A DNA stretch of 13,235 nt from an uncultured archaeon (GCA_964645535.1 CAZYCQ010000075.1:1-13235); one strand, 5' to 3'. Positions 2,132 to 13,235 are shown, numbered from the stretch's first letter. Made by a program: numbers and translations. Notes: a model not told the origin generated them from the letters alone.

Positions 2132-3421
2132 TCATTGATTTTCTATCTCATTGATTGTTTGATCCAAGTAAATCCTGATTTTCGCCAACAATTCCAAACC
2201 TTTGGGAGTTAACGCCACCTGCTTTTTATTCATTCTCTCCAAATCAGGAAGTTTCTCCACCCAGCCTTTGTTGATAAGGAATTCAATAGCGGATCTGAGG
2301 TTTCTCTTGGGATTAGGAAAGCTCTTTCCGATAGTTTTCAGGTCGGTTGGAGAATTCTTCTCCAAAAAGGAAAGAATATAGTAATGGGAAAACTTGAGGA
2401 CAAGAATCTTGTCCAAATCCTTCTGTTCAATTCCCTCTTCCTTCTGCTTCACCGGCAAGTCTTCGACAAGACTGCTTTCTGCAATCTGAACTGTCCTGTA
2501 CTCAAAGATTGTCCGTCCAACGATGAGAACCGTCACCACGATAAAAAATATCGAGTTGTCAAGAAAGTGCTTTGAAGTGATGAAATACTTGAAGACCAGA
2601 AGAATGAAGGTTAACCATCCTCCGATTATTCCCAGATTCTTGTAGAGACTTACCTTCCTCATGGTTTCAAACTGCAGCACCTTGTTCTGTTCCAACTCTT
2701 TCAGTCCTTCCAAAGATTTCACTCTCAGCCGTCCATACATGAAACGGAAAATTGAGTAGGCAATTGCAGTCCCAACAAGTATGATTGCCACAAGCACCAT
2801 GGCAAATGAATTCTGTGAGTAGGGATATGGGAGGGCAAATACCAATACCCATGTGAAATTGACCATGAATGGATCCATCCACTCCCTCCATAGCTCAAGA
2901 GGGGCTGTTGTCTCTACAATTCCATATTTCATCATCCCTATCAGAAGCAAAATTACAATATGGACTGCATTGGTCAGAATGGTACTCATTATCACAAAAA
3001 TCCAAAAGATCCATGGACCTAGGAATCTTTCGGAAAATATCCGTCCATAAATCGGATAATTCAATGCCTCTCCTGTCCCCGCCTGTTGTTGCCAACTCAA
3101 AACAAGAACCGAAAAAAAACCCAAGTAGAATATGAATGTCCCCCCCATCAATATGTTCCAAATTCTCCTCAATGAATACCCCTTCATTTCATCAAGTAAT
3201 GAAAAGTAATGCTCAAATGCAAAGCCGAAAAAGGAAGTCACATAGAAATATGCCAAAATGAAAAATCCTGCATGTGCACAAAGAAAAAGATAGGTGAACC
3301 AATCAATATCCGTAAAACCAAGATGATTTGTGATCGGTATTCCAAAGGGTATGACCAGCAAGATCACCGAACAAACAACTATCATGACCTTCCTGCTGCT
3401 CCCCACCTGCACAAGGAACAT
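2132..3421 (-). CDS. Polytopic membrane protein (~8 TM) with C-terminal MarR-like winged-helix domain, paralog A
   Basis: About 8 hydrophobic segments, then a wHTH pattern (ILSFLEKNSPTDLKTIGKSF...NLRSAIEFLINKGWVEK...VALTPKG). I moved the start from 3430 to Met4 at 3421 (429 aa) because it then begins MFL like paralog B and lies 35 nt from AAGATTTATC. Confidence 0.8.
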   Translation of the reverse strand: MFLVQVGSSRKVMIVVCSVILLVIPFGIPITNHLGFTDIDWFTYLFLCAHAGFFILAYFYVTSFFGFAFEHYFSLLDEMKGYSLRRIWNILMGGTFIFYLGFFSVLVLSWQQQAGTGEALNYPIYGRIFSERFLGPWIFWIFVIMSTILTNAVHIVILLLIGMMKYGIVETTAPLELWREWMDPFMVNFTWVLVFALPYPYSQNSFAMVLVAIILVGTAIAYSIFRFMYGRLRVKSLEGLKELEQNKVLQFETMRKVSLYKNLGIIGGWLTFILLVFKYFITSKHFLDNSIFFIVVTVLIVGRTIFEYRTVQIAESSLVEDLPVKQKEEGIEQKDLDKILVLKFSHYYILSFLEKNSPTDLKTIGKSFPNPKRNLRSAIEFLINKGWVEKLPDLERMNKKQVALTPKGLELLAKIRIYLDQTINEIENQ

Positions 3422-3446
3422 CGTATCCATTTCACAAAAAAAGAAT

Positions 3447-3528: not shown

Positions 3529-3551
3529 ATGTGCCTACAGAAACCTGTCCT

Positions 3552-4025
3552 ATGCCCAACACATTGATTGCCACCTGCGGCGCAAGCCTGAATGGTATCC
3601 ACAATGTCCTTTTTGCCCATTATACCAAAGGAGAACATGCCATCAAACGTGTTGTTCTCCTTCTCACAAAGCAACTTCTCAATAGTTTTTTCAATGACCT
3701 TGTCTCCTTGATCCAGAAAACCAACGACCAAATGGGATGGAAACTTCCTCTGCCAGAAAAACAGGTCATCCCCGGTGAAAACCTTATTGAGATCAGAACC
3801 GCAATCGGCAAAATCCTTGACAAATATGACGAATTCATTCTTGACATTACCGCTGGAAGAAAGGTCATGGCTGTTGGTGCTGCCATGGCATTCGATCGAG
3901 CCCAAGTCAAGAACAAGGTGATCTCGTACTATCTTCTGAAAGGCGATGTCGTGGCTCCTGCCACTGACCGACTATTGCAGCACCTGATGGCTGACGAATG
4001 GGAATTGCAGTATTACCGTCCATGA
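3552..4025 (+). CDS. Stand-alone CARF-domain protein (cyclic oligoadenylate sensor or ring-nuclease-like)
   Basis: 157 aa with a Rossmann-like alpha/beta pattern. CARF motif I is LIATCGAS12 at the first strand, and motif II is FILD98ITAGR103K104VMA (D-x-T-x-G-x-K). There is no fused HTH or nuclease domain. Confidence 0.85.
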   Translation: MPNTLIATCGASLNGIHNVLFAHYTKGEHAIKRVVLLLTKQLLNSFFNDLVSLIQKTNDQMGWKLPLPEKQVIPGENLIEIRTAIGKILDKYDEFILDITAGRKVMAVGAAMAFDRAQVKNKVISYYLLKGDVVAPATDRLLQHLMADEWELQYYRP

Positions 4026-4086
4026 CCTCTGCCCTTCCATTGATTGATTCTGGTCGGCATCTCGCCCATAAAACGCAGTGTAAGAA

Positions 4087-4096
4087 AAAGACTTTT
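4087..4096 (+). promoter_or_regulatory. BRE/TATA-like promoter
   Basis: AAAGACTTTT begins 34 nt before the ATG at 4121. The identical 10-mer recurs at 4644. Confidence 0.55.
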
Positions 4097-4120
4097 CTAT
4101 ACTTAGGTTATCTCTTTCCC

Positions 4121-4600
4121 ATGGAAAAACAAGATCGTCCCCTTTCCTCACGAAACATCCGGATAATTTTCCTCATCCTCACCTTCTTCCCCGTCATATA
4201 CCTAATCCTGCTTTTTGTGTTCTCGTCCACTGAGACAGAAACTTCGCCAGATCCCACATTCGATACAATTCTTCCTATCGGTTGGGCAATTATTTCTGTA
4301 GTTGACATCCTTCTCGCATTTTTCATATTCCTACCAAAATTCAATGCACTCATGCAAAAAGATGCTACCATGAGAAATGCAAGAGAGGCTTTTTCCCATC
4401 TGATGATTGTAAGCACTTTGCTGGAAGCCATTGGCGTTTTCGGACTTATAATCGGAATCATGCAGATTTTCGTCACTGGAACCTTTGCCTTTCCTATCCC
4501 CTCTCTCTTTATCGTAATCTCCTTCCTTTTCTGTCTCTATATTTATATGACCTATGTCCCCCGTCTCACCTCCATGATCGATCAGGCCATGGGGATGTAA
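4121..4600 (+). CDS. Hypothetical 4-TM membrane protein
   Basis: 159 aa from ATG 4121 (MEKQDRPLSS...). The ORF-track start at 3998 overlaps the CARF gene and spans the promoter. There are four hydrophobic helices, and TM3 contains LLEAIGVFGL. Confidence 0.75.
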   Translation: MEKQDRPLSSRNIRIIFLILTFFPVIYLILLFVFSSTETETSPDPTFDTILPIGWAIISVVDILLAFFIFLPKFNALMQKDATMRNAREAFSHLMIVSTLLEAIGVFGLIIGIMQIFVTGTFAFPIPSLFIVISFLFCLYIYMTYVPRLTSMIDQAMGM

Positions 4601-4643
4601 TTCCTTACCTCCTCTGTTTCTCAAACCAAGCTCTCAAAGATAC

Positions 4644-4654
4644 AAAGACTTTTA
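4644..4654 (+). promoter_or_regulatory. BRE/TATA-like promoter
   Basis: AAAGACTTTTA begins 35 nt before the ATG at 4679. Confidence 0.6.
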
Positions 4655-4678
4655 TCATCTCCACCAAATGCATCCCCT

Positions 4679-5053
4679 ATGGGGCTTTCAACAAAAGATT
4701 ACATAGCCATCGCCTTAACGGCATTGACAGGTATCATCCACCTTTTTATCGGTCTTGTAACCACCATTTCAGAATTCAATGTTCTCAACCTTCTCCTCCT
4801 GCTGAACGGAATCGGATATCTCTCACTTCTCACGGGAATCTACTTCCCGAACCTGACCGGAGGCTTGACTGAAGGAAAAGACGTACTTTTGAAAGAAACA
4901 CTCATCGGTTTCACCATCATCACCATTATCGCCTACTTCATCACTTGGGGAACGGAAGGCCTTCAAAACATCGTCGGAATGGCAACCAAAATCATCGAAC
5001 TTGCCTTGGTGCTCGTTCTGCTGACCAGCCTCGGTTCATCTCCATCTGAATGA
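4679..5053 (+). CDS. Small 4-TM membrane protein of unknown function (possibly DUF7475-like)
   Basis: 124 aa with four TM helices carrying intramembrane polar residues: TGIIHL, LNGIGY, GFTIITI and TKIIE. The family label is from memory and is unverified. Confidence 0.75.
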   Translation: MGLSTKDYIAIALTALTGIIHLFIGLVTTISEFNVLNLLLLLNGIGYLSLLTGIYFPNLTGGLTEGKDVLLKETLIGFTIITIIAYFITWGTEGLQNIVGMATKIIELALVLVLLTSLGSSPSE

Positions 5054-5103
5054 AACAATTGGCAAGATTCTGTAGACAAAATTCAACTTTTCCTCGTACA
5101 CAT

Positions 5104-5113
5104 AAAACTTATC
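5104..5113 (+). promoter_or_regulatory. BRE/TATA-like promoter of paralog B
   Basis: AAAACTTATC begins 35 nt before the ATG at 5139. Confidence 0.5.
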
Positions 5114-5138
5114 AACCTATCCATTCCCTTGATTTTGG

Positions 5139-6425
5139 ATGTTCCTCCTCGAAACCCAACGAAGAAAGCAAATCCAATGGTTCACCCTTGCCTTCATCAT
5201 CGTGGGAATCCCTGTCGGAATACCCATGGTCATGCTCTATCGCCCACACTTTGTATTCGACTGGTTCAGCTACATCTTCCTCGTCTTCCATGCAATATAT
5301 TTCATCAGCGCATACTTTCTTGTAACCTTCTTCTTTGATTTCGCAAATATCCACTTTTTCTCCCTCTTGCACAAAGAACAGTATCAATCCATCCGAAAAA
5401 TATGGAACCATTTCCAAATCGGTGCCATTGTCTTTTTCACTGCACTTTTCGGCATGGTCGCACAACATGACTGGAAAAGATATCTCACAGACCCGGCAAT
5501 GCATGAGGCAACGCCAACCGACAACACCAATTACGGATCTCTCTTTACCTTCGGCCCATGGGGATGGGTACTCTTCGCCCTTTTCATCTATATGGCCGCA
5601 CTACTCATCAATGCAGTGTTCACCGTACTCTTCACCCTCCTCTGCACCAAAAAATGTGAACAAACAACCACCACCATCCCAATCGAAAGATGGAGAGATT
5701 GGTCCAAGAACTTCCTCATCTATCTTGTCTGGCTCATCCTGTTTACCCTCCCATTCTCCCTCTCCAGTGGCGAACTCCTCACAATTTTCTACATCCTATT
5801 CCTCTCCGGTCCAACCATCGGATACCTCATCTTCCTCTACACAACCACACTCCTGAACTACAAAAAACCAGAAACCATTGAACAGTTCATCGAAGCCAGA
5901 AAATTGGAATTCCAGACCATGAAAAAAATAAACCTCTCCAAAAATGTCGGAATCATATTCGCATCACTTACATTCATCCTCATGGTCAACCGATACCTCT
6001 CCACACCACAACGATTCTTCAACAACCCAATACTCCTTGCAATTGCAACCATCATCATCATCGGAGGAACCGCTTTCGACTATTGGTCCGCTCAGATTGA
6101 AGAAAAAAGCCTCACTGAACTCGAACCAAAAAAATCAACAAATATAGACCCAAAACAGATCCACTCAATCCTCTCCTTCAGATTTGCACACTTCTACATC
6201 CTATCCCACCTCGAAAAAAATTCCCCAACTGACCTCAAATCACTCAGAAAAACTTATCCAAACAGCCCAACCAACCTCAGATCATCTCTCGACTTCCTTG
6301 TCCAAAACAAATACATCGAAAAAAAACCAAAACTCCAAAACATGAACAGAAAAACTATCGAAATCACCCCTCAAGGATTAAAAATCCTCAACCAAATCAA
6401 AACATACCTCAGCTCCGAAGAGTAA
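5139..6425 (+). CDS. Polytopic membrane protein (~8 TM) with C-terminal MarR-like winged-helix domain, paralog B
   Basis: 428 aa, colinear with 2132-3421 (DWFSYIFL/DWFTYLFL, SIRKIWN/SLRRIWN, GPW, LEKNSPTDLK). My hand count gives 40/77 identities across the wHTH region. Confidence 0.85.
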   Translation: MFLLETQRRKQIQWFTLAFIIVGIPVGIPMVMLYRPHFVFDWFSYIFLVFHAIYFISAYFLVTFFFDFANIHFFSLLHKEQYQSIRKIWNHFQIGAIVFFTALFGMVAQHDWKRYLTDPAMHEATPTDNTNYGSLFTFGPWGWVLFALFIYMAALLINAVFTVLFTLLCTKKCEQTTTTIPIERWRDWSKNFLIYLVWLILFTLPFSLSSGELLTIFYILFLSGPTIGYLIFLYTTTLLNYKKPETIEQFIEARKLEFQTMKKINLSKNVGIIFASLTFILMVNRYLSTPQRFFNNPILLAIATIIIIGGTAFDYWSAQIEEKSLTELEPKKSTNIDPKQIHSILSFRFAHFYILSHLEKNSPTDLKSLRKTYPNSPTNLRSSLDFLVQNKYIEKKPKLQNMNRKTIEITPQGLKILNQIKTYLSSEE

Positions 6426-6624
6426 AATCCCAGATTCTTCCCAGAAGCTGATTCCTAAATGGATTAAAAAAAAAAAACATTCCAAACTCAATGAGGCTAT
6501 CCATGATATTACCCCAATATTGCCAATAGCTACCATCGCACTCATCTTCCTGACCGTTAATAATAACCAAGAACCAAGACATGAACCAGACGTGTTCGGA
6601 GTAGATCCAAAATAACCCAAATAA

Positions 6625-6946
6625 ATGATAATCCCAACAAAAAATTTTGCCCAGGAAACAGATAATTTCACTGGATGAATGTAGATCAACTATGTTTGGA
6701 AAGCATCGAAATATTGCTCTTCTCCATAGAACAATTGTCAACAATGCTAACCATTTCGTAAATGAGATTGAAATCTTTGTCAATGAGGTTATGTAGGCAC
6801 TCGATCAGAAAAATCTTGAAATTTTTGCTCAATTTTAAAATGAAATACTGAATGAATTCTATAACATAAGGAAATCTACTCATATCATATTGCAGCAAAT
6901 TGACAGAATAAACAAAATGTTACTAAGACTTCTCAAGTTAATTTAA
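6625..6946 (+). pseudogene. Possible degraded gene remnant next to the tRNA 3' end
   Basis: One + frame (6632-6946) reads ...KQIISLDECRSTMFGKHRNIALLHRTIVNNANHFVNEIEIFVNEVM*ALDQKNLEIFAQF*NEILNEFYNIRKSTHIILQQIDRINKMLLRLLKLI*. It has only two internal stops (TAG 6794, TAA 6836) in about 105 AT-rich codons. An out-of-frame ATG lies at 6625. Confidence 0.25.
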
Positions 6947-6952
6947 AAAAAA
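6945..6952 (-). terminator. Oligo-T terminator after tRNA-Gly
   Basis: A T8 run on the - strand begins 3 nt after the tRNA discriminator, typical of archaeal intrinsic terminators. Confidence 0.6.
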
Positions 6953-6954
6953 GA

Positions 6955-7026
6955 TGCACGAGCCGGGAATTGAACCCGGGACAAGAGCTTGGAAGGCTCC
7001 TATGATAGCCACTTCACCACTCGTGC
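6955..7026 (-). tRNA. tRNA-Gly (anticodon TCC), intronless, CCA not encoded
   Basis: The reverse complement folds as a cloverleaf: acceptor stem GCACGAG/CTCGTGC plus A73, anticodon stem GGAGC/GCTCT with loop CTTCCAA, and T arm CCGGG-TTCAATT-CCCGG. Confidence 0.97.
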
Positions 7027-7053
7027 TTTTCTGATTGAATTAGATATTGGAAG

Positions 7054-7062
7054 TTTATAAAA
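7054..7062 (-). promoter_or_regulatory. TATA box of tRNA-Gly
   Basis: TTTTATAAA on the - strand, ending 28 nt upstream of the mature tRNA 5' end. Confidence 0.65.
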
Positions 7063-7355
7063 TTTGGGACTTGATTCATTTTTTTGGATTTTGACTTTTC
7101 CGTAATTTTTCCATTTGCAATTTTTTGGCAATTTTAATAATTTCTTTTTTTTCAATTTAGTGTATGATGGTTCTTGTTCTTGATTTTGCCATTTCCTTTT
7201 CAGTGATTTTATTTGGTTTGACAGTTGTGCTTCCTGCTGGTTCGCAGCGTGTTTCTCCGGAGCGTAAGGATTCTGATTGATGGTTTTTGTTTTGTTGTTT
7301 GATCATGTTTGTGATGTTTGCTTTTGAGTGATATTGTGAAGGTTCTCCGGAGTAC

Positions 7356-7365
7356 AAGTTTAAAT
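7356..7365 (+). promoter_or_regulatory. BRE/TATA-like promoter of the radical SAM-HAD operon
   Basis: AAGTTTAAAT begins 34 nt before the ATG at 7390. Confidence 0.6.
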
Positions 7366-7389
7366 TGTTCCTGTTGTAAGTTATTCAGG

Positions 7390-8808
7390 ATGCATATCCT
7401 GATGGCTCAATGTTATTTTCGTGTGCTTGATCCTAAGGAGTATTCTCGTCAGATGCCTTATCCTCCATTGGGTTCATTGATCTGTGCGGAGCTGTTGCGG
7501 CGGGAGGGTCATGAGGTAACGTTTTTTGATGCGATGCTTGGGACACCTGCTGAATTGATGGAGGTGTATTGTTCGGATGATTTTGATTTGGTTGTATTTT
7601 ATGATGATGAGTTCAATTATTTGACGAAGATGAGTCTTTCACGGATGCGTGAGACTGTTCTAGATCTTGCCGGTTCGATAGTTGAGCCTGTGGTTGTGTA
7701 TTCAAGTGATGCGATGTATGTTCCTGAGTTGTATCTTAGATCTGGTGTTGATTATGTTCTTTGTGGTGAGGGAGAGTTTGCTCTTTTGGAGTTGTTGGGC
7801 GCATTGGCAGGTGGTTATTCTCCTGATGGCATTGAGGGTTTGCATTATCTGAAGGACGGTCGTTTGGTTGACGGTGGTCGTCGTGGTTTGCATGGTTGTT
7901 TGGATGATTTTCCGGATCCTGCATTTGATTTGGTTGATTTGTCTCGGTATCGGTCGATTTGGCGTCGTCACCATGGGTATTTTTCGTTGAACCTGAGTAC
8001 CAGTCGTGGTTGTACCTATGGTTGCAATTGGTGTTCCAAGCCACTTTGGGGTCGTACGTATCATGCTCATTCTCCGGGGCGTGTGGCTTCGTTGATGCAT
8101 CGTTTGGTTTCTTCGTACGGTGTTGACCATTTCTGGATTACGGACGACATTTTTGGGTTGAAGAAGGGTTGGTTGTCCGATTTTCGTCGTGTTCTTAGGG
8201 AGATGGATTTCCGTCCCCGGTACAAATGTCTTTCACGTGCGGATTTGCTGGTGCGTGGTGATACGGTTGAATTGTTGAAGGCTACGGGTTGCCAGACGGT
8301 TTGGATCGGAGCGGAATCTGGGAGTCAGCGAGTGTTGGATGCCATGGAGAAGGGTATCCGTGTGGAGCAGATTCGTGAGGCGGTTAGGCTCTGCAAGGCG
8401 GCTGGGCTTGAGATCTGTTTTTTCATTCAGTTTGGTTATTTGGGTGAGGATTGGAACGACATTTTGAAGACTCGGCAGTTGATACTTGACACACTTCCCG
8501 ACGACATTGGCATATCGGTTTCGTATCCTCTTCCTGGTACACGGTTCTATGACATTGTGAAGGATCGTCTGGGCGTGAAGCGTAATTGGGAGGATTCTGA
8601 CGATCTGGATCCGTTGTTTCCCGGCACCTTTCCTCGTGAGTTCTACCGATACCTTCATCGTTTGGTTCACAACGAGTATCGGCTCGCCTTGGTTCGGGAT
8701 TCATGGGCACCCCGGTCGATTGCAAAGCGTATATATCATTGGTTGGGGAAGAAACATTTTGAACGGAAGGTAAAGCCATATATTTCGTCAAGGATTTCTT
8801 TGACATAG
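7390..8808 (+). CDS. Cobalamin (B12)-binding radical SAM enzyme
   Basis: 472 aa from ATG 7390 (MHILMAQCYF...). The N-terminal B12-binding region has PYPPLG and VDYVLCGEGE. It carries the CxxxCxxC motif SRGCTYGCNWC, plus ITDDIF, IGAESGSQRVLDAMEKG and YPLPGT. Confidence 0.93.
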   Translation: MHILMAQCYFRVLDPKEYSRQMPYPPLGSLICAELLRREGHEVTFFDAMLGTPAELMEVYCSDDFDLVVFYDDEFNYLTKMSLSRMRETVLDLAGSIVEPVVVYSSDAMYVPELYLRSGVDYVLCGEGEFALLELLGALAGGYSPDGIEGLHYLKDGRLVDGGRRGLHGCLDDFPDPAFDLVDLSRYRSIWRRHHGYFSLNLSTSRGCTYGCNWCSKPLWGRTYHAHSPGRVASLMHRLVSSYGVDHFWITDDIFGLKKGWLSDFRRVLREMDFRPRYKCLSRADLLVRGDTVELLKATGCQTVWIGAESGSQRVLDAMEKGIRVEQIREAVRLCKAAGLEICFFIQFGYLGEDWNDILKTRQLILDTLPDDIGISVSYPLPGTRFYDIVKDRLGVKRNWEDSDDLDPLFPGTFPREFYRYLHRLVHNEYRLALVRDSWAPRSIAKRIYHWLGKKHFERKVKPYISSRISLT

Positions 8809-9509
8809 TGAACAGGGACGGCATTCGCGTGCTGCTTCTTGATTTCGACGGCACGCTTATTGACTATCGTGTGGCAGAATACCATGCGATACGGGATGTC
8901 TTGGTCAATTGGGGTGTTCGAGACATAGAAGCTGCCGCACGAAGGTACAATATTATCAATGAAGGTCTGTGGGCAAGGTTTCGGAAGGGTGAGCTTGATG
9001 CGGCAAGCATTCGTTCCTTGCGTTTCAAGATGCTTTTTGATGAGCTGGAGATTGACCGCGATCCTCTGCGATCCAATTCCGAATACCTTGAATCCTTCAT
9101 TTTTCATTCAAAGGTGGAGCCAGATGTTTTGGAAGGCATTCAAAGGCTGAAGGAATCTGGTTACTCCCTGATGGTTCTCACCAATGGGTTTCATGACACG
9201 CAAAGGCGGCGATTGGAGCAGTCCGGTCTGCTTCGGTATCTTGACGGGTATTTGACAAGCGAGCAGGTTTCCAGTCCCAAGCCTGCTCCTGCAATGTTTG
9301 AGCGAGCCTTGAAGAAGTTTTCGGCCTTTCCGCATGAGGCATTGATGGTGGGCGATTCACTTGAGGCGGACATCGGCGGTGCTTCGGCTCTGGGTATCCC
9401 ATCGATTCTGATTGGGGATGGGATGCCCGATGTGCCGCCTCTTCCTCATGCTGTCTTTCCTGATTTTCCGGGTTTTGTATCCTTCTGGTTGGGTGATGAC
9501 TTCTCTTGA
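8808..9509 (+). CDS. HAD-superfamily phosphatase, YjjG/YfnB-like (pyrimidine nucleotidase-like)
   Basis: 233 aa with motif I DFDGTL, motif II LTNG, motif III PKP and motif IV GDSLEADIGGA. The GTG start overlaps the radical SAM stop (TAGTG). Confidence 0.9.
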   Translation: MNRDGIRVLLLDFDGTLIDYRVAEYHAIRDVLVNWGVRDIEAAARRYNIINEGLWARFRKGELDAASIRSLRFKMLFDELEIDRDPLRSNSEYLESFIFHSKVEPDVLEGIQRLKESGYSLMVLTNGFHDTQRRRLEQSGLLRYLDGYLTSEQVSSPKPAPAMFERALKKFSAFPHEALMVGDSLEADIGGASALGIPSILIGDGMPDVPPLPHAVFPDFPGFVSFWLGDDFS

Positions 9510-9534
9510 TGGCTTTGCGGTATGTCCTTTCGGA

Positions 9535-11160
9535 TTATGCGATGACTTCTCCAGATAGTCTTTCCGCTGCTTTTCTGAAGTCCTTCTCTGCCATGTGGAG
9601 GGTGTTGACCAAGAGTGGTTTGGCTTGATAGAAGGCATCCCTCATTTCCTGTGTCTTGGAGACAAGGTTTGGGAGTGCATCGACAGCGTTTCTGAAGACG
9701 AGGTTGGATTCGATCGTCTTTGGTATCCAGTCTACGAACTCTGTAAGCCTTGGATGGATGGGATAATAGAATATTGCCTTATGCTTGCCGAATAGCGAGT
9801 TCTTGTCAAACTTCTTCAGTGTGTCCGGTACCTTGACGGGTGGGATTGCGATTGTAAAGATGTCATTCTTGTTTTTCTTGCCGTATTGGAAGATATAGAT
9901 GGGTAGGAGCATTTTGATGGTCTGCCCCGGATTGTCCAGCTTGAATCGTTCGGGTTCGATCATGGGTGCCCCTTCGGTCTGTACCTGTTTTTCAATTTCG
10001 CGAGCCAATTGGTCCTTGCGTTGCAGGAACTGTTCATACTTGCTTTGTGCTTCCTCAAGCTGAAGCTTGATTTCTGCAAGTTCAGCATCCCTTTCCGCCT
10101 TGGCATCGATCAGCGTTCTTCGAATGGCTTCTTTGTCAAGTTCAGCCTTCCTTTCAAGATCTTCGACATCGAGTTTTAGATCGGCATCGATGTCTGCTTC
10201 TCTGTTTCTGGTTCGGTTCACCTGATCCTTTGCGAAGCTGATGGCAGCCTTGAATGTGTCTGTGGCATCATCAAGCGCTGCAAGGGTTTCGTCGATGGCG
10301 GTGATGGGATCGTCTCCGGGAGTTGCGGTAAGTTTTTCCAATTCCTGCACCAGCTTTTCGATCTCTTTCTCGTCCTTGCGGATATTCTTTGCCACTCCCT
10401 TTACGAAGGTTTTGATGTTCTCCTTTTTGGCCTTTTCAGCTTCCTTTTTCAAATTTGCAAGATCCGCCTGCAATTTCTTTTCTCTTTCCTTCAGTTTGGT
10501 CTTTTCTTCTGTTTCCAGTTCCTTTATCAGTGTTTTCCAATAGGTGGTGCGTTCCTCAAGCAATGTTTTCTGGTCGTCTACCTCTTCTTTGAAAGCGGCT
10601 TCTGCCATCTCGATGCGTTTCTTGATTTCATCATTCAAGCGTTTCTTGTCATAGATTGCACTGTTGACGGATGCAATGTCGGCCTTCAGATCTGCCTGTT
10701 CCCGCGTGGCTGGCAGTTCCTTGAAATCCCAGTTTCCGTCCACCCGTTGTGCATCAAGAAGTGCATAAATGATTTCAAGGTCTTTCTTGCCGATTCCTCC
10801 CTTGAGGATGGTGTCGGTGACCTTGAGCTGCAGGAGTTTCTTGTAGACCCTATCGACCGTGAGGTTGGCACGGTTGTCAAGAAATGCCTTGAGTTCCTGT
10901 ATGTCGATGAGGTTGGTGATGGGTACGCGGATTTCCTTTCCGCTTGAGGGATTCAATGCAAGATAGCCTCCGGTCTTGGTCTTGACAAATAGCAATGGGA
11001 TGGATGCCTTTGAGATGCGCTTGATCTGGTCTGCCTTTCCTACTGCCTTGTCCCCTAGAAAATCCGAAGCAAGAATCAACATCCCTGCTGTTTCCGCAAG
11101 CTTGTCCTCTTCAGCTGAAAGTGAGCTTGTCTGAAACTTGACTTTGATGTTCGATGCCAT
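9535..11160 (-). CDS. Hypothetical coiled-coil protein with globular N- and C-terminal domains
   Basis: 541 aa. Two proline-free, E/K/A/L-rich helical runs (residues ~151-280 and ~286-397) are separated by PGDDP. There is no TM segment and no recognisable ATPase motif. A TATA-like AACTTTAAGT lies upstream (11200-11191). Confidence 0.8.
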   Translation of the reverse strand: MASNIKVKFQTSSLSAEEDKLAETAGMLILASDFLGDKAVGKADQIKRISKASIPLLFVKTKTGGYLALNPSSGKEIRVPITNLIDIQELKAFLDNRANLTVDRVYKKLLQLKVTDTILKGGIGKKDLEIIYALLDAQRVDGNWDFKELPATREQADLKADIASVNSAIYDKKRLNDEIKKRIEMAEAAFKEEVDDQKTLLEERTTYWKTLIKELETEEKTKLKEREKKLQADLANLKKEAEKAKKENIKTFVKGVAKNIRKDEKEIEKLVQELEKLTATPGDDPITAIDETLAALDDATDTFKAAISFAKDQVNRTRNREADIDADLKLDVEDLERKAELDKEAIRRTLIDAKAERDAELAEIKLQLEEAQSKYEQFLQRKDQLAREIEKQVQTEGAPMIEPERFKLDNPGQTIKMLLPIYIFQYGKKNKNDIFTIAIPPVKVPDTLKKFDKNSLFGKHKAIFYYPIHPRLTEFVDWIPKTIESNLVFRNAVDALPNLVSKTQEMRDAFYQAKPLLVNTLHMAEKDFRKAAERLSGEVIA

Positions 11161-11297
11161 TTTTTCCCTATTACCCCTGAAATCGGTCTTACTTAAAGTT
11201 AGCAGTTCTTTTGAAGAGTTTTGAACAGCCGGCTTACCTAAATGCTGACCTGCTTGGAAAGTTTTTATTTACATGGTTTCCTACGTCCATTCTGAAT

Positions 11298-12536
11298 ATG
11301 GGTAATCTCAGAGTCTTCTTCAGATCGGTTCGTTTCACCACCCGGACTAAACGCAGGTTTCTTGTCTTTGTGACCATCTTCGCCCTGACAGCTGCATTTA
11401 TCGCATTTTTCGTGAACACTCTTGATGGCTACTACACCTCTGACTATCTTGACCAGAGAGGTGTTTTTCTTCAGCAGTTTGACGATCACAATGTGACTGC
11501 AGGTCAGGGAGAAGCCACTCTCCAAAGGATACGTCAGGTTTCCTCGGTTGAATTGGATGAATTGCAGCTCTACCGCTACATTGACGTGGATGCGTCGTTG
11601 CGTATCTTCAGCATCAATATTTCTCGACCGTGGATGCACCCTTGGGTCAATCCTGAAGTGGTTCTCACGGGTCATTTCCCATCGGGCACGAATCAGGTTC
11701 TGATCCCGAACGGTGACTTGCAGATCCGAAAAACAGTTTCGAACATTTACATGTCAAGCACTGTCGCAGTAGGTAGCAAGTTCTTCTTCTCAAACGGAAC
11801 CCTGAGCAGTGCCAATGCCACTGCCCTTGAATTTGTGGTCTCGGGAACTTTTGATGGATCGAATTTCGGCAATACGCAACGTGACACCCTCTGGATTTTC
11901 ATGGATGATTCCATGTTTGACAGGGTCGTCCAACTCTATGGTTTCAATGCCAGTTCTGAAGTCTATACCCATTCCGCAAGCATTACTGTCAAGACACAGG
12001 GTTTCTTCCCTACAGGCGTTGATTACGACAATGTTGCAACATTGAAGGATGAAATCGAGACTCAGGTGCTTCCGGATACCACATTGGGAAGATGGGAGCA
12101 GACGGCCCAAACCTCTTCTGCCACCGTCAAAAAGGAAGCCCGTAATCGGGACATCACTTCTTTTGGTTTTGCCATTCTTGGCGGAATTGTTCTCACCTTC
12201 ATGTTCTCATACTTGCTTTCCCGATTCAGGAAACGGGAAGTTGCAATCCTCAAGGCTATGGGATGGGGCAAAAGCTCAATTCGGCTTACCCTCATTGCAG
12301 AAATCCTGACCACTGCCATGACCGGCTTTGTCCTTGGAATGGTGGGTGCAAACGGTACCTTGCTGTATCTGAGCCTACGTGATCTCAATACGCTGCGTCG
12401 ATCCGCATTTCTTCGACCGGAAGCAATCCTTGCCTCCTTCATCATCATTGTGGTGGTGACCTTGCCGGGCATGATGTTTGCAACTTTCAGAGCATTGAGA
12501 GTCAGTCCAATGGAGGCTTTTAGAGACAGGACGTGA
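11298..12536 (+). CDS. ABC transporter permease, FtsX/MacB family
   Basis: 412 aa from ATG 11298. It has an N-terminal TM, a large extracytoplasmic domain with N-x-S/T sequons (NVT, NIS, NGT, NAT, NAS), then three TMs with the FtsX-type motifs RKREVAILKAMGW and SPMEAFR. TATA-like AAAGTTTTTATTTA at 11258-11271 argues against the TTG start at 11211. Confidence 0.9.
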   Translation: MGNLRVFFRSVRFTTRTKRRFLVFVTIFALTAAFIAFFVNTLDGYYTSDYLDQRGVFLQQFDDHNVTAGQGEATLQRIRQVSSVELDELQLYRYIDVDASLRIFSINISRPWMHPWVNPEVVLTGHFPSGTNQVLIPNGDLQIRKTVSNIYMSSTVAVGSKFFFSNGTLSSANATALEFVVSGTFDGSNFGNTQRDTLWIFMDDSMFDRVVQLYGFNASSEVYTHSASITVKTQGFFPTGVDYDNVATLKDEIETQVLPDTTLGRWEQTAQTSSATVKKEARNRDITSFGFAILGGIVLTFMFSYLLSRFRKREVAILKAMGWGKSSIRLTLIAEILTTAMTGFVLGMVGANGTLLYLSLRDLNTLRRSAFLRPEAILASFIIIVVVTLPGMMFATFRALRVSPMEAFRDRT

Positions 12537-13219
12537 TCATCATGAGTGTAGAAGTATTGCTTGAAGCCAAAAATCTTGTCAAGACCTATCGTAGAGGTAG
12601 AAATGAAGTGGTTCATGCCCTTCAGAATGTCTCCCTCAAGGTCTACCCTGCGGAAATGATCCTGCTTTTCGGACCCTCTGGATCTGGAAAATCCACCCTA
12701 CTCAATCTTCTTTCGGGTTTGGACAAACCCACCTCCGGAGAGATTTTCTTCATGGGCAAGGACATTACGAAGATGGATGAAAATGAATTGACTGTTTTCA
12801 GGCGCAATGAAGTGGGATTTGTCTTTCAGTCATGGGAACTGATCGACCACCTGAATGCGGTGGAAAATGTTGAAAGTCCCCTCTACCCTTCGAAAATTGA
12901 TGGGGGTGAACTCAGAACACAGGCCATCCAGTTGCTTAGAAGACTTGAGCTCATGGATCGAGAATTCCATTTTCCAAAGGAACTGTCTGGTGGTGAGCAA
13001 CAGAGGGTGGCCATCGCTCGCGCTCTCATCAAGAAACCGAAGATCGTATTTGCTGATGAACCCACAGGCAATCTTGACCAAGCAACGGGTGAATTGATCA
13101 TGAGGCAGATGAAAACCATCTGTAGGGCAGGAACCACCATGATCATTGCCACCCACAACGAAGAACTGAGGAGATATGCCGACCGTGTCATTCGACTGAC
13201 TGATGGAAGAATTATGTAA
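12533..13219 (+). CDS. ABC transporter ATP-binding protein, LolD/MacB family
   Basis: Walker A GPSGSGKS, Q-loop GFVFQ, signature LSGGEQQRV, Walker B/D-loop VFADEPTGNLD and H-loop ATHN. The start is either GTG 12533 (GTGA overlap with the permease stop) or ATG 12542. Confidence 0.96.
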   Translation: MIIMSVEVLLEAKNLVKTYRRGRNEVVHALQNVSLKVYPAEMILLFGPSGSGKSTLLNLLSGLDKPTSGEIFFMGKDITKMDENELTVFRRNEVGFVFQSWELIDHLNAVENVESPLYPSKIDGGELRTQAIQLLRRLELMDREFHFPKELSGGEQQRVAIARALIKKPKIVFADEPTGNLDQATGELIMRQMKTICRAGTTMIIATHNEELRRYADRVIRLTDGRIM

Positions 13220-13235
13220 AAAAGCTACTTTGCGG

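Follow-up and report, generated by a model that had tools for sequence, protein, structure and literature searches.

A strand-composition flip at tRNA-Gly(TCC) as one case of a mutational field centred on tRNA genes in a Heimdall-group Asgard archaeon

Strand-composition skews are a standard means of inferring how a chromosome is copied, and at human N-domain origins such skews jump upward only. Untranslated RNA genes, for their part, are prone to R-loops. Complete Heimdall, Loki and Odin genomes have been reported without a single V-shaped cumulative GC skew (PMC11291895). For tRNA genes, mutagenesis associated with transcription has been described (Thornlow et al. 2018, PMC6130373); human CpG-island promoters have strand asymmetries that are bidirectional (PMC2817419), and vertebrate mitochondrial DNA has deamination gradients (PMC3269015, PMC8565317). 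In bacteria, GRINS, which are defined as duplicates of more than 500 bp at more than 80% identity, show GC and TA skews that are intense, correlated and coupled to gene conversion (2021, PMC8256042). A literature search found no description of a tRNA-centred skew in archaea.

The window analysed here is a stretch of 13,235 nucleotides from the genome of an uncultured archaeon. A sequence-only reading of this window had noticed a sharp inversion of GC and AT skew at tRNA-Gly(TCC) and had proposed a bidirectional chromosomal origin near 6900-7160, with a junction of foreign DNA or an assembly join as alternatives. The flip itself is real, and the locus is almost certainly one case of a mutational field that recurs across the genome around tRNA genes. 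At nearly every tRNA, and on both sides of it, the strand that runs outward in the 5' to 3' direction has gained T from C and G from A; the field is strongest at silent sites, fades over 2-4 kb, and is blind to the direction of the flanking genes. Such a footprint in a Heimdall-group Asgard archaeon suggests that tRNA genes are where a DNA process not yet described begins.

The skew flip at tRNA-Gly(TCC)

The hand counts in six 60-nt lines from which the flip was first noticed were all exact on recount, and sliding windows agree with them: GC skew passes from -0.60 (6151-6450) to +0.47 (7501-7800) and AT skew from +0.38 (6301-6600) to -0.50 (7051-7350), with the minimum of the cumulative GC skew in 6601-6900. 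When the flip is measured by subtracting the keto skew of the left 1.5 kb from that of the right 1.5 kb, it amounts to 0.612 at tRNA-Gly(TCC), which is the top value among 61,170 genome positions scanned (sd 0.072) and the strongest keto-skew flip of the 3.6-Mb genome; 5000 randomly placed non-tRNA sites reach 0.236 at most. By the same 1.5-kb measure the right arm is the more skewed (+0.35 vs -0.26). Third-position keto skew is -0.57 in the left gene and +0.61/+0.62 on the right, and 4-fold-site keto skew is -0.70 and +0.57/+0.59, respectively; the mean over 2882 ORFs of the genome is 0.02 (sd 0.12). The left value reflects 4-fold sites in paralogue B (Table 1) that are C.50, A.35, T.12 and G.03, and the right value of +0.59 those of the radical SAM gene, at T.50, G.29, A.12 and C.09. 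The intense GC and TA skews at the locus are correlated, and GC content around the flip is ordinary.

Selection on amino acids was considered as a cause of the skew and is ruled out, since the skew is greatest at 4-fold sites. Both transitions shift whatever the bases next to the depleted ones, and no deaminase-type motif was found among these contexts. The skew recodes neighbouring proteins, in that GNN-encoded residues fall from 31% genome-wide to 18% in paralogue B (26% in paralogue A, to which the B protein is 38% identical). The arms die away over ~2-4 kb on each side, and the first reading was right that the footprint is mutational. The right arm ignores gene direction, because the minus-strand 541-aa gene in its tail keeps a plus-strand third-position skew of +0.21. 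(The radical SAM ORF opens at 7318, and homology begins at the Met at 7390.) In the region downstream of tRNA-Gly, a T-run terminator adjoins the 3' end of the tRNA and an A12 run lies at 6463-6477.

Table 1. Features of the window around the flip, with the evidence or skew measured for each
Feature	Position	Strand or placement	Evidence or measure
Paralogue A of the left-arm gene, internal comparison	2132..3430	-	beyond the field's steep portion; 4-fold keto skew +0.03
DUF7475-like small membrane ORF, left arm fading	4679..5053	+	third-position keto skew -0.33; Pfam match below cut-off
Membrane protein with C-terminal winged helix (paralogue B), left-arm core	5139..6425	+	Pfam HTH_34, weak match
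Region downstream of tRNA-Gly, no convincing gene	6426..6954		keto skew -0.12 to -0.28
tRNA-Gly(TCC), flip pivot	6955..7026	-	ARAGORN; Rfam RF00005, 63.6 bits
G/T-rich intergenic region upstream of tRNA-Gly	7027..7389		keto skew +0.31 to +0.40
Palindromic TATA-like box TTTATAAA	7054-7061	28-35 nt from tRNA-Gly 5' end	sequence, palindrome search
B12-binding radical SAM gene, right-arm core	7390..8808	+	Pfam PF04055, PF02310
HAD hydrolase gene, right arm fading	8808..9509	+	Pfam PF00702; third-position keto skew +0.33
541-aa gene, right-arm tail	9535..11160	-	coding-strand third-position skew -0.21

A flip of this kind could be produced where DNA of different provenance meets at a tRNA integration site, or where an assembly has been wrongly joined. 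This genome does have ~2.3 kb (4650-6950) beside the tRNA-Gly 3' end that is missing in the congener G002, relative to which the locus is rearranged and tRNA-Gly inverted; in addition, two other assemblies end at 6428-6504, at the A12 run. However, public assembly 1 reproduces 6428-13235 at 99.88%, with tRNA-Gly in the same orientation, and public assembly 2 reproduces 3771-6504 at 99.96% (at least 99.9% as rounded in both cases). The two overlap by 77 identical nt (6428-6504), an interval that none of the independent assemblies spans in a single contig, and near-identical assemblies show 1-3 base differences. An assembly join is unlikely because these independent assemblies agree with the sequence. 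A foreign junction is likewise unlikely, because the right arm, which shares synteny with G002, is still the more skewed of the two, and because at other tRNAs one long gene can contain a comparable gradient (e.g. contig C2 83551-86880). The ordinary GC content and the repetition of the two-armed pattern at ~40 tRNAs also argue against both. As for an integrated element, the 3' part of tRNA-Gly occurs only once in the window, and no integrase domain was found by Pfam in the 10 of its 12 main ORFs that were scanned. Taken together, these data make a junction or join extremely unlikely.

tRNA genes as pivots across the genome

The proposal of a chromosomal origin near 6900-7160 fails by a measure that its own authorship had set, namely whether similar flips occur at most tRNAs: they are seen at ~37 of 41, and the tRNA-Gly site is therefore not the origin. 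A genome-wide count gives the same answer, since each of the 14 strongest flips has a tRNA gene no more than 350 bp away. The expected polarity is present in 37/41 upstream and 35/40 downstream flanks regardless of the direction of the flanking genes, and the flip amplitude at tRNA sites averages 0.278, compared with -0.005 (sd 0.058) at 5000 random sites. Flips have the C/A to G/T polarity only (genome maximum +0.61, most negative -0.29), and the upstream arm exceeds the downstream arm (Wilcoxon p 0.003). Seven flips at first lay where no tRNA was known, and intron-containing tRNAs were found there; the flip thus reveals such genes when they are missed by the ARAGORN default run. (Within tRNA introns, which were tried as a neutral probe of the switch position, keto skew is ~0.)

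It had been argued that gene orientation does not account for the flip, both flanking genes being on the plus strand, and the genome as a whole agrees. Among genes less than 750 bp from a tRNA, those facing inward and outward are equally skewed (0.18 in each case), which rules out gene orientation as the cause. At 750-3500 bp outward genes exceed inward ones (0.28 vs 0.13, 0.19 vs 0.11, 0.16 vs 0.06). Inserted DNA acquires the field as well: on contig C24, tRNA-Ile and a 50-nt copy of its 3' end bracket a 2.6-kb islet whose skew is +0.37 beside the tRNA and declines to +0.05, and the promoterless 50-nt repeat is without a flip.

Neither high transcription in general nor a canonical origin accounts for the field, because the loci at which either would be expected to act are flat. 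The 5' flank of the 23S rRNA gene has neither a flip nor an upstream arm, the SRP RNA and RNase P RNA loci and the ribosomal-protein cluster have no flip, and the three orc1/cdc6 loci (all Cdc6_C matches in the genome; contigs C50 and C12) have no skew. The EF-1alpha locus has a weak, diffuse flip only. Searches of this genome for SSU rRNA, 5S rRNA and histone genes found none. Inteins were considered as alternative pivots; three of the four in the genome show nothing, and one (contig C11) has a one-armed, ambiguous skew.

That the tRNA-Gly site is nonetheless an origin, or that tRNA genes serve as dispersed, regular replication start sites, would fit the G/T leading-strand polarity that is found on both sides. 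In line with the sequence-only reading, DNA synthesis that proceeds from the pivot to either side would be expected to leave this polarity. The restriction to upward jumps would fit as well, and the missing V-shaped skew in related genomes (PMC11291895) leaves room for many start sites. However, rather than one or a few sites with replichore-long skew there are ~40 equivalent ones, among which tRNA-Gly is not special, and the arms fade within 2-4 kb, short of the midpoints between sites. A generic repeat search of 6380-7420 gave only A/T runs and composition-driven pseudo-repeats, with no inverted repeats of ORB or mini-ORB type on either side of an AT-rich element, and no orc1/cdc6 was found among the 10 of 12 main window ORFs scanned against Pfam, nor any Cdc6_C match on the contig; on both counts the first reading was right. 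With the orc1/cdc6 loci elsewhere unskewed and the pattern missing from close relatives, regular origins at these sites are very unlikely. The tRNA-Gly locus is not an ORC-dependent chromosomal origin, a foreign junction or an assembly artefact.

Lineage dependence and possible causes

Among the relatives sampled, the pattern is present in three and absent in at least four, so the strength of the process differs between related lineages. G003, which is labelled as the same genus (20 tRNAs), shows nothing, and a lineage-specific factor is therefore required. The radical SAM orthologues of two congeners have 4-fold keto skews of -0.10 and +0.07, and bacterial homologues are at ~0. Because these orthologues are unskewed, the skew is not inherent to the flanking genes. 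Amplitude by isoacceptor is partly concordant with one congener (rho 0.64, n=10). Gene adjacencies are kept between G002 and this genome in 3/6 cases spanning tRNAs, compared with 41/61 elsewhere, a comparison of low power, and the amino-acid identity of congeners (38-77%) makes them too diverged for polarising substitutions.

Several candidate drivers were rejected. NucS was not found in this genome (89% complete) and is present in G012, MutS is in all genomes compared, with or without the trait, and UDG is in every genome with the trait but also in three without it; none of these tracks with the trait. Growth temperature was likewise set aside, because IVYWREL estimates, which are crude and from small samples, fail to tell the two groups apart (54, 54 and 63 C with the trait, 47, 56 and 72 C without it).

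The reading that we tentatively prefer, judged from composition, is that tRNA genes may repeatedly set off DNA synthesis in short, strand-asymmetric tracts or the exposure of single strands. A break or R-loop at the untranslated, heavily transcribed tDNA would prime repair or restart synthesis, which would extend a few kb away from the gene to either side. The outward strand would then be exposed as single-stranded DNA, in which C could deaminate to U and A to hypoxanthine; alternatively, this strand could be made by error-prone synthesis that favours G.T mispairs. Over evolutionary time many such rounds would push the silent sites of the outward strand towards G+T, with a mutational drive strong enough to alter amino-acid composition. 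Simple 5' to 3' resection followed by deamination of the 3' overhang would predict the opposite polarity, and the damage or errors would therefore have to fall on a newly made or displaced outward strand. The stronger upstream arm is not predicted by short-tract synthesis alone. We counted the 2.3-kb indel and the inverted tRNA relative to the congener for this model, and the three flat inteins and tRNA-spanning adjacencies that are not clearly less conserved against it.

A transcriptional footprint is a somewhat unlikely alternative. In this case tRNA promoters would be bidirectional, and read-through together with upstream-antisense transcription would leave the outward non-template strand single-stranded for kilobases, where it would deaminate (C to T, A to G) or escape transcription-coupled repair. 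The flip does lie exactly on a transcription unit, the TATA-like box upstream of tRNA-Gly is a perfect palindrome, and the non-template strand downstream of the start carries a G+T excess at 35/40 tRNAs. The greater skew of outward-facing genes at 750-3500 bp, the R-loop proneness of untranslated RNA genes and the partial isoacceptor concordance with the congener point in the same direction, as does the fall of amplitude as anticodon positions 35-36 become richer in GC, a weak link (rho -0.43, p 0.01). The asymmetries of human CpG-island promoters (PMC2817419) offer a parallel. On the other hand, neither scaling with expression nor presence at other highly transcribed genes was found: amplitude is uncorrelated with codon demand, taken as an expression proxy (rho 0.15, p 0.37), and the 23S 5' flank, ribosomal-protein, SRP RNA, RNase P RNA and EF-1alpha loci behave as described above. 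Moreover, the arms extend across convergent genes over 2-4 kb and are stronger upstream than on the transcribed downstream side, and relatives that are also bound to transcribe their tRNAs heavily are without the pattern.

It is also conceivable, but unlikely, that tRNA genes, being conserved islands and hot spots of integration, anchor homologous exchange in a gene-conversion or GRINS-type process, with heteroduplex of opposite polarity on each side and base-biased mismatch correction yielding a mirror skew. The indel and the inversion at tRNA-Gly relative to the congener, and the att-flanked islet at tRNA-Ile, would suit such a process, and GRINS share the amino-acid shifts, Gly/Val/Cys/Trp vs Pro/Thr/His/Gln (PMC8256042). 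Nevertheless, no long DNA repeats were found in 6380-7420, the paralogues are far from GRINS-type duplicates in their identity, and the inteins are mostly unskewed. A search of this genome, which is 89% complete, gave no NucS/EndoMS, the distribution of MutS is indifferent to the trait, and the 23S gene, a still larger conserved island, is without an upstream arm.

Meaning and comparison with described systems

In this genome the canonical initiator genes give no signal, yet nearly every tRNA gene carries a very strong, two-armed local signal. If the footprint marks breaks, R-loops or initiation, it would allow a DNA transaction of uncultured Asgard archaea to be mapped from their sequence, and the related genomes with and without the trait form a natural comparison set for finding the responsible factor. 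In such genomes, origin prediction from skew is expected to give false positives, and genes beside tRNAs are expected to be mis-flagged by codon-usage and horizontal-transfer detectors. A bolder and distinctly improbable version of tRNA-linked synthesis is that, in some Heimdallarchaeia, DNA synthesis would habitually begin at tRNA genes, independently of ORC and with R-loops or recombination as its primer, and the chromosome would be copied or restarted from dozens of such dispersed sites. Were this true, silent-site skew would be a map of start sites that is legible from sequence, and the closest archaeal relatives of eukaryotes would have a multi-site organisation reminiscent of theirs.

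Compared with known systems, the field resembles the skew switches of replication origins (bacterial and archaeal oriC, human N-domains) in its C/A to G/T polarity, coupled GC and TA skews, and upward jumps only. Unlike those, it has a tRNA gene at every pivot, of which there are ~40 in 3.6 Mb, and arms that fade in 2-4 kb with a 4-fold amplitude of up to 0.6-0.7; neither ORB boxes nor orc1/cdc6 genes adjoin it, and the latter have no skew at their own loci. With mutagenesis at tRNA genes (PMC6130373) and CpG-island asymmetry (PMC2817419) it shares the anchoring at a tRNA or promoter and the G+T excess, on both sides, of the strand leading away from the start. It differs in extending for kilobases rather than the tens of bases usual for tRNA flanks, in arms that cross convergent genes, and in the flatness of highly expressed loci and close relatives. 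Vertebrate mitochondrial DNA (PMC3269015, PMC8565317) is similar in its one-strand C to T and A to G changes, which are graded with distance and bring silent sites near saturation, but it is one strand-displacement replicon, whereas here many short two-armed foci lie on a cellular chromosome. Finally, GRINS (PMC8256042) are alike in their intense correlated GC and TA skews, third-position peak and amino-acid shifts; they are built on duplicates, of which neither the paralogue pair nor 6380-7420 gave an example, and the anchor here is instead the tRNA gene.

The skew inversion at tRNA-Gly

The GC and AT skew inversion that led the sequence-only reading to a candidate replication origin lacking an adjacent orc1/cdc6 gene is present as described. 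Its six hand base counts are reproduced exactly on recounting; across tRNA-Gly(TCC), GC skew passes from -0.60 (6151-6450) to +0.47 (7501-7800) and AT skew from +0.38 to -0.50, with the cumulative GC skew minimum of the window at 6601-6900. The tRNA gene at the pivot is preceded, at 28-35 nt, by a TATA-like palindrome and followed by a T-run past its 3' end, and the two genes that flank it do lie on the same strand (see table). The window takes up all of contig C75 (13.2 kb). Its source genome comprises 3.6 Mb in 176 contigs (41% GC, 89% complete) and, among public relatives, is nearest to Candidatus Heimdallarchaeota MAGs. (The ends of two other public assemblies of the population fall inside a 77-nt stretch with an A12 run, 6428-6504, which is spanned in one contig solely by the window's own.)

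The skew around tRNA-Gly is mutational and positional. Most of it is borne by silent sites: the composition at 4-fold sites is C.50, A.35, T.12 and G.03 for the left flanking gene, against T.50, G.29, A.12 and C.09 for the right one, and third-position keto skew (G+T versus A+C) is -0.57 and +0.61, respectively, against a genome mean of 0.02 (sd 0.12). Third-position skew then declines outward, to -0.33 and -0.06 on the left and to +0.33, +0.21 and +0.06 on the right, where it continues across a gene on the - strand. The 4-fold-site keto skew of radical SAM orthologues in two congeners is -0.10 and +0.07, and that of bacterial homologues is about 0; thus, the skew is not intrinsic to the genes. 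It changes the encoded proteins: the share of GNN-encoded residues is 18% in the left gene, 26% in its paralogue 2 kb off and 31% genome-wide.

Coordinates of the pivot, its neighbours and other loci of the analysis
Feature	Location	Strand
tRNA-Gly(TCC), skew pivot	window 6955-7026	-
Left flanking gene, membrane protein with winged-helix domain (paralogue B)	window 5139-6425	+
Right flanking gene, B12-binding radical SAM enzyme	window 7390-8808	+
Membrane/winged-helix family, paralogue A	window 2132-3430	-
Membrane/winged-helix family, further copy	C8:35959-37146	
164-aa ORF	window 3531-4025	+
Intron-containing tRNA gene	C29:3019-3131	
Intron-containing tRNA gene	C21:1971-2106	
Intron-containing tRNA gene (probably tRNA-Lys(UUU))	C6:48194-48283	
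Intron-containing tRNA gene	C11:7714-7823	
Intron-containing tRNA gene	C107:2201-2291	
Intron-containing tRNA gene	C42:27686-27796	
Intron-containing tRNA gene	C59:4154-4268	
Intein-containing gene, 1673 aa	C11:63405-68426	
tRNA-Ile(GAT) and islet, contig C24	L106 3388-6130	
23S rRNA gene locus, relative G012	L102 5751-11000	

Flips at tRNA genes across the genome

The genome was scanned for flips, each scored by subtracting the keto skew of the left 1.5 kb from that of the right 1.5 kb. The flip at tRNA-Gly(TCC), 0.612, is the genome maximum (sd 0.072), but the site is not alone in having one: the same kind of flip recurs at most tRNA genes. In particular, a tRNA gene lies within 350 bp of each of the 14 largest flips, and the scan returned no flip of opposite polarity past -0.29. 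When the 43 tRNA calls were scored on the tRNA-sense strand over 1.5 kb per side, this strand was C/A-rich upstream in 37 of 41 (mean -0.17) and G/T-rich downstream in 35 of 40 (mean +0.11); 24 of the 38 tRNAs measured on both arms lie above the 99.9th percentile for 5000 random sites, and the upstream arm is the stronger (p 0.003). A junction with foreign DNA, or one made in assembly, is a most improbable source of the skew.

Within 750 bp of a tRNA, third-position skew is 0.18 in inward genes and 0.18 in outward genes, and so it tracks position rather than gene direction. The composition switches across the tRNA itself: G drops and A increases on the upstream side, C drops and T increases on the downstream side, and the complementary A->G shift is the smaller one. 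Every neighbouring-base context is shifted in the skewed DNA, which gives no pointer to a motif-specific deaminase.

Seven flips had no tRNA in the default ARAGORN run; each contains an intron-containing tRNA gene by Rfam, its spot marked by the flip, so that in this genome the flip serves as a tRNA-gene detector. (The gene on C6 is called 'tRNA-Stop(tta)' with an intron by ARAGORN; its acceptor ends and upstream motif are common to tRNA-Lys(CTT) on contig C101, and rather than a suppressor it is probably a tRNA-Lys(UUU) whose intron was called in the wrong place.) Flips of like polarity but lower amplitude (0.2-0.3) occur at C7:66350, C84:6350, C97:2500, C79:7750, C14:14350, C64:15050 and C36:18150, with no tRNA or Rfam match at their pivots; divergent genes border several of them, and EF-1alpha is close to one.

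No flip is found at the three orc1/cdc6 loci, at the SRP RNA, RNase P RNA or 23S gene 5' flank, at the cluster with ribosomal protein L2, or at three of four inteins, and EF-1alpha has just a weak, diffuse flip. On these grounds the pattern is neither a canonical origin signal nor a general outcome of high expression. Among the loci tested, the pattern is specific to tRNA genes. (The intein-containing gene on C11 is C/A-rich on the + strand throughout, with keto skew down to -0.32; the contig ends without a matching positive arm.)

Relatives, rearrangement and an islet

Left and right skews are about -0.12 and +0.13 at 11 tRNAs of G002 (same genus) and about -0.13 and +0.07 at 13 tRNAs of G012 (same order, closed genome), and two loci of G007 (same family) are strong. 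Nothing is seen at 20 tRNAs of G003 (labelled same genus, 35% GC), and little or nothing at 4-10 tRNAs each of G004, G006, G009 and G011 (same family or order); G008, with right-arm skew alone at two sampled loci, was left out of the with/without classing. At the 23S rRNA gene of G012, where ARAGORN finds no tRNA, two weak arms with the same polarity are present (-0.24 over the 250 nt just upstream, +0.15 to +0.24 over about 2 kb downstream).

At the orthologous locus of G002, tRNA-Gly adjoins the radical SAM gene in the orientation opposite to that of the window; the window's orientation is matched by an independent assembly. On the tRNA-Gly 3' side, the window is longer by about 2.3 kb (4650-7030 versus 9100-9830 of the G002 stretch L005), which hold a DUF7475-like ORF and paralogue B. 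The latter belongs to a lineage-specific family of multi-pass membrane proteins of about 430 aa with a C-terminal winged-helix domain; its two window copies are inverted, 38% identical and 1.7 kb apart, and neither is present at the G002 syntenic locus. (The 164-aa ORF has a weak, below-cut-off match to a Card1-type CARF domain, E 5e-4.)

On contig C24, a 2.6-kb islet comes after tRNA-Ile(GAT). It encodes an AAA_21/AAA_15 ATPase and a DUF4276 protein, has no integrase, and its far end is a direct repeat, perfect over 50 nt, of the tRNA-Ile 3' part; it looks like defence-type cargo left behind at an att site. Its keto skew falls from +0.37 beside tRNA-Ile to +0.05 at the far end, and the promoterless repeat has no flip. 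In this single case, consequently, the field goes with the intact tRNA gene, and inserted DNA appears to have taken it on.

Candidate mechanisms

T and G are gained by whichever strand points 5'->3' outward from the tRNA, a polarity that narrows the permissible mechanisms. Fork arrest or termination at tRNAs would not match it, nor would 3'-overhang deamination following simple 5'->3' resection. Outward DNA synthesis fits, whether origin-like, restart or repair fill-in; true origins dispersed at tRNA genes are improbable. The explanation tentatively favoured is that breaks or R-loops at tRNA genes repeatedly set off DNA synthesis over short tracts, or the exposure of single strands. This would cover why the pattern is specific to tRNA genes, two-armed and kilobases in scale, why orc1 loci and highly expressed translated genes are silent, and why there are local rearrangements; it leaves the stronger upstream arm and the unskewed inteins unaccounted for.

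Exposure of the non-template strand through divergent transcription also fits the polarity. It has some support from the palindromic TATA-like box at tRNA-Gly, from the greater skew that genes facing outward have at 750-3500 bp, and from a link with anticodon GC content, but the highly expressed loci are negative, and it is the less likely cause.

Literature searches brought up no account of skew centred on tRNA genes in archaea. Complete Heimdall, Loki and Odin genomes are reported to be without bidirectional cumulative GC skew (PMC11291895). Heteroduplex repair with a suitable bias fits the polarity as well, and a GRINS-type process of biased repair in recombination (PMC8256042) is a rather unlikely cause of the skew.
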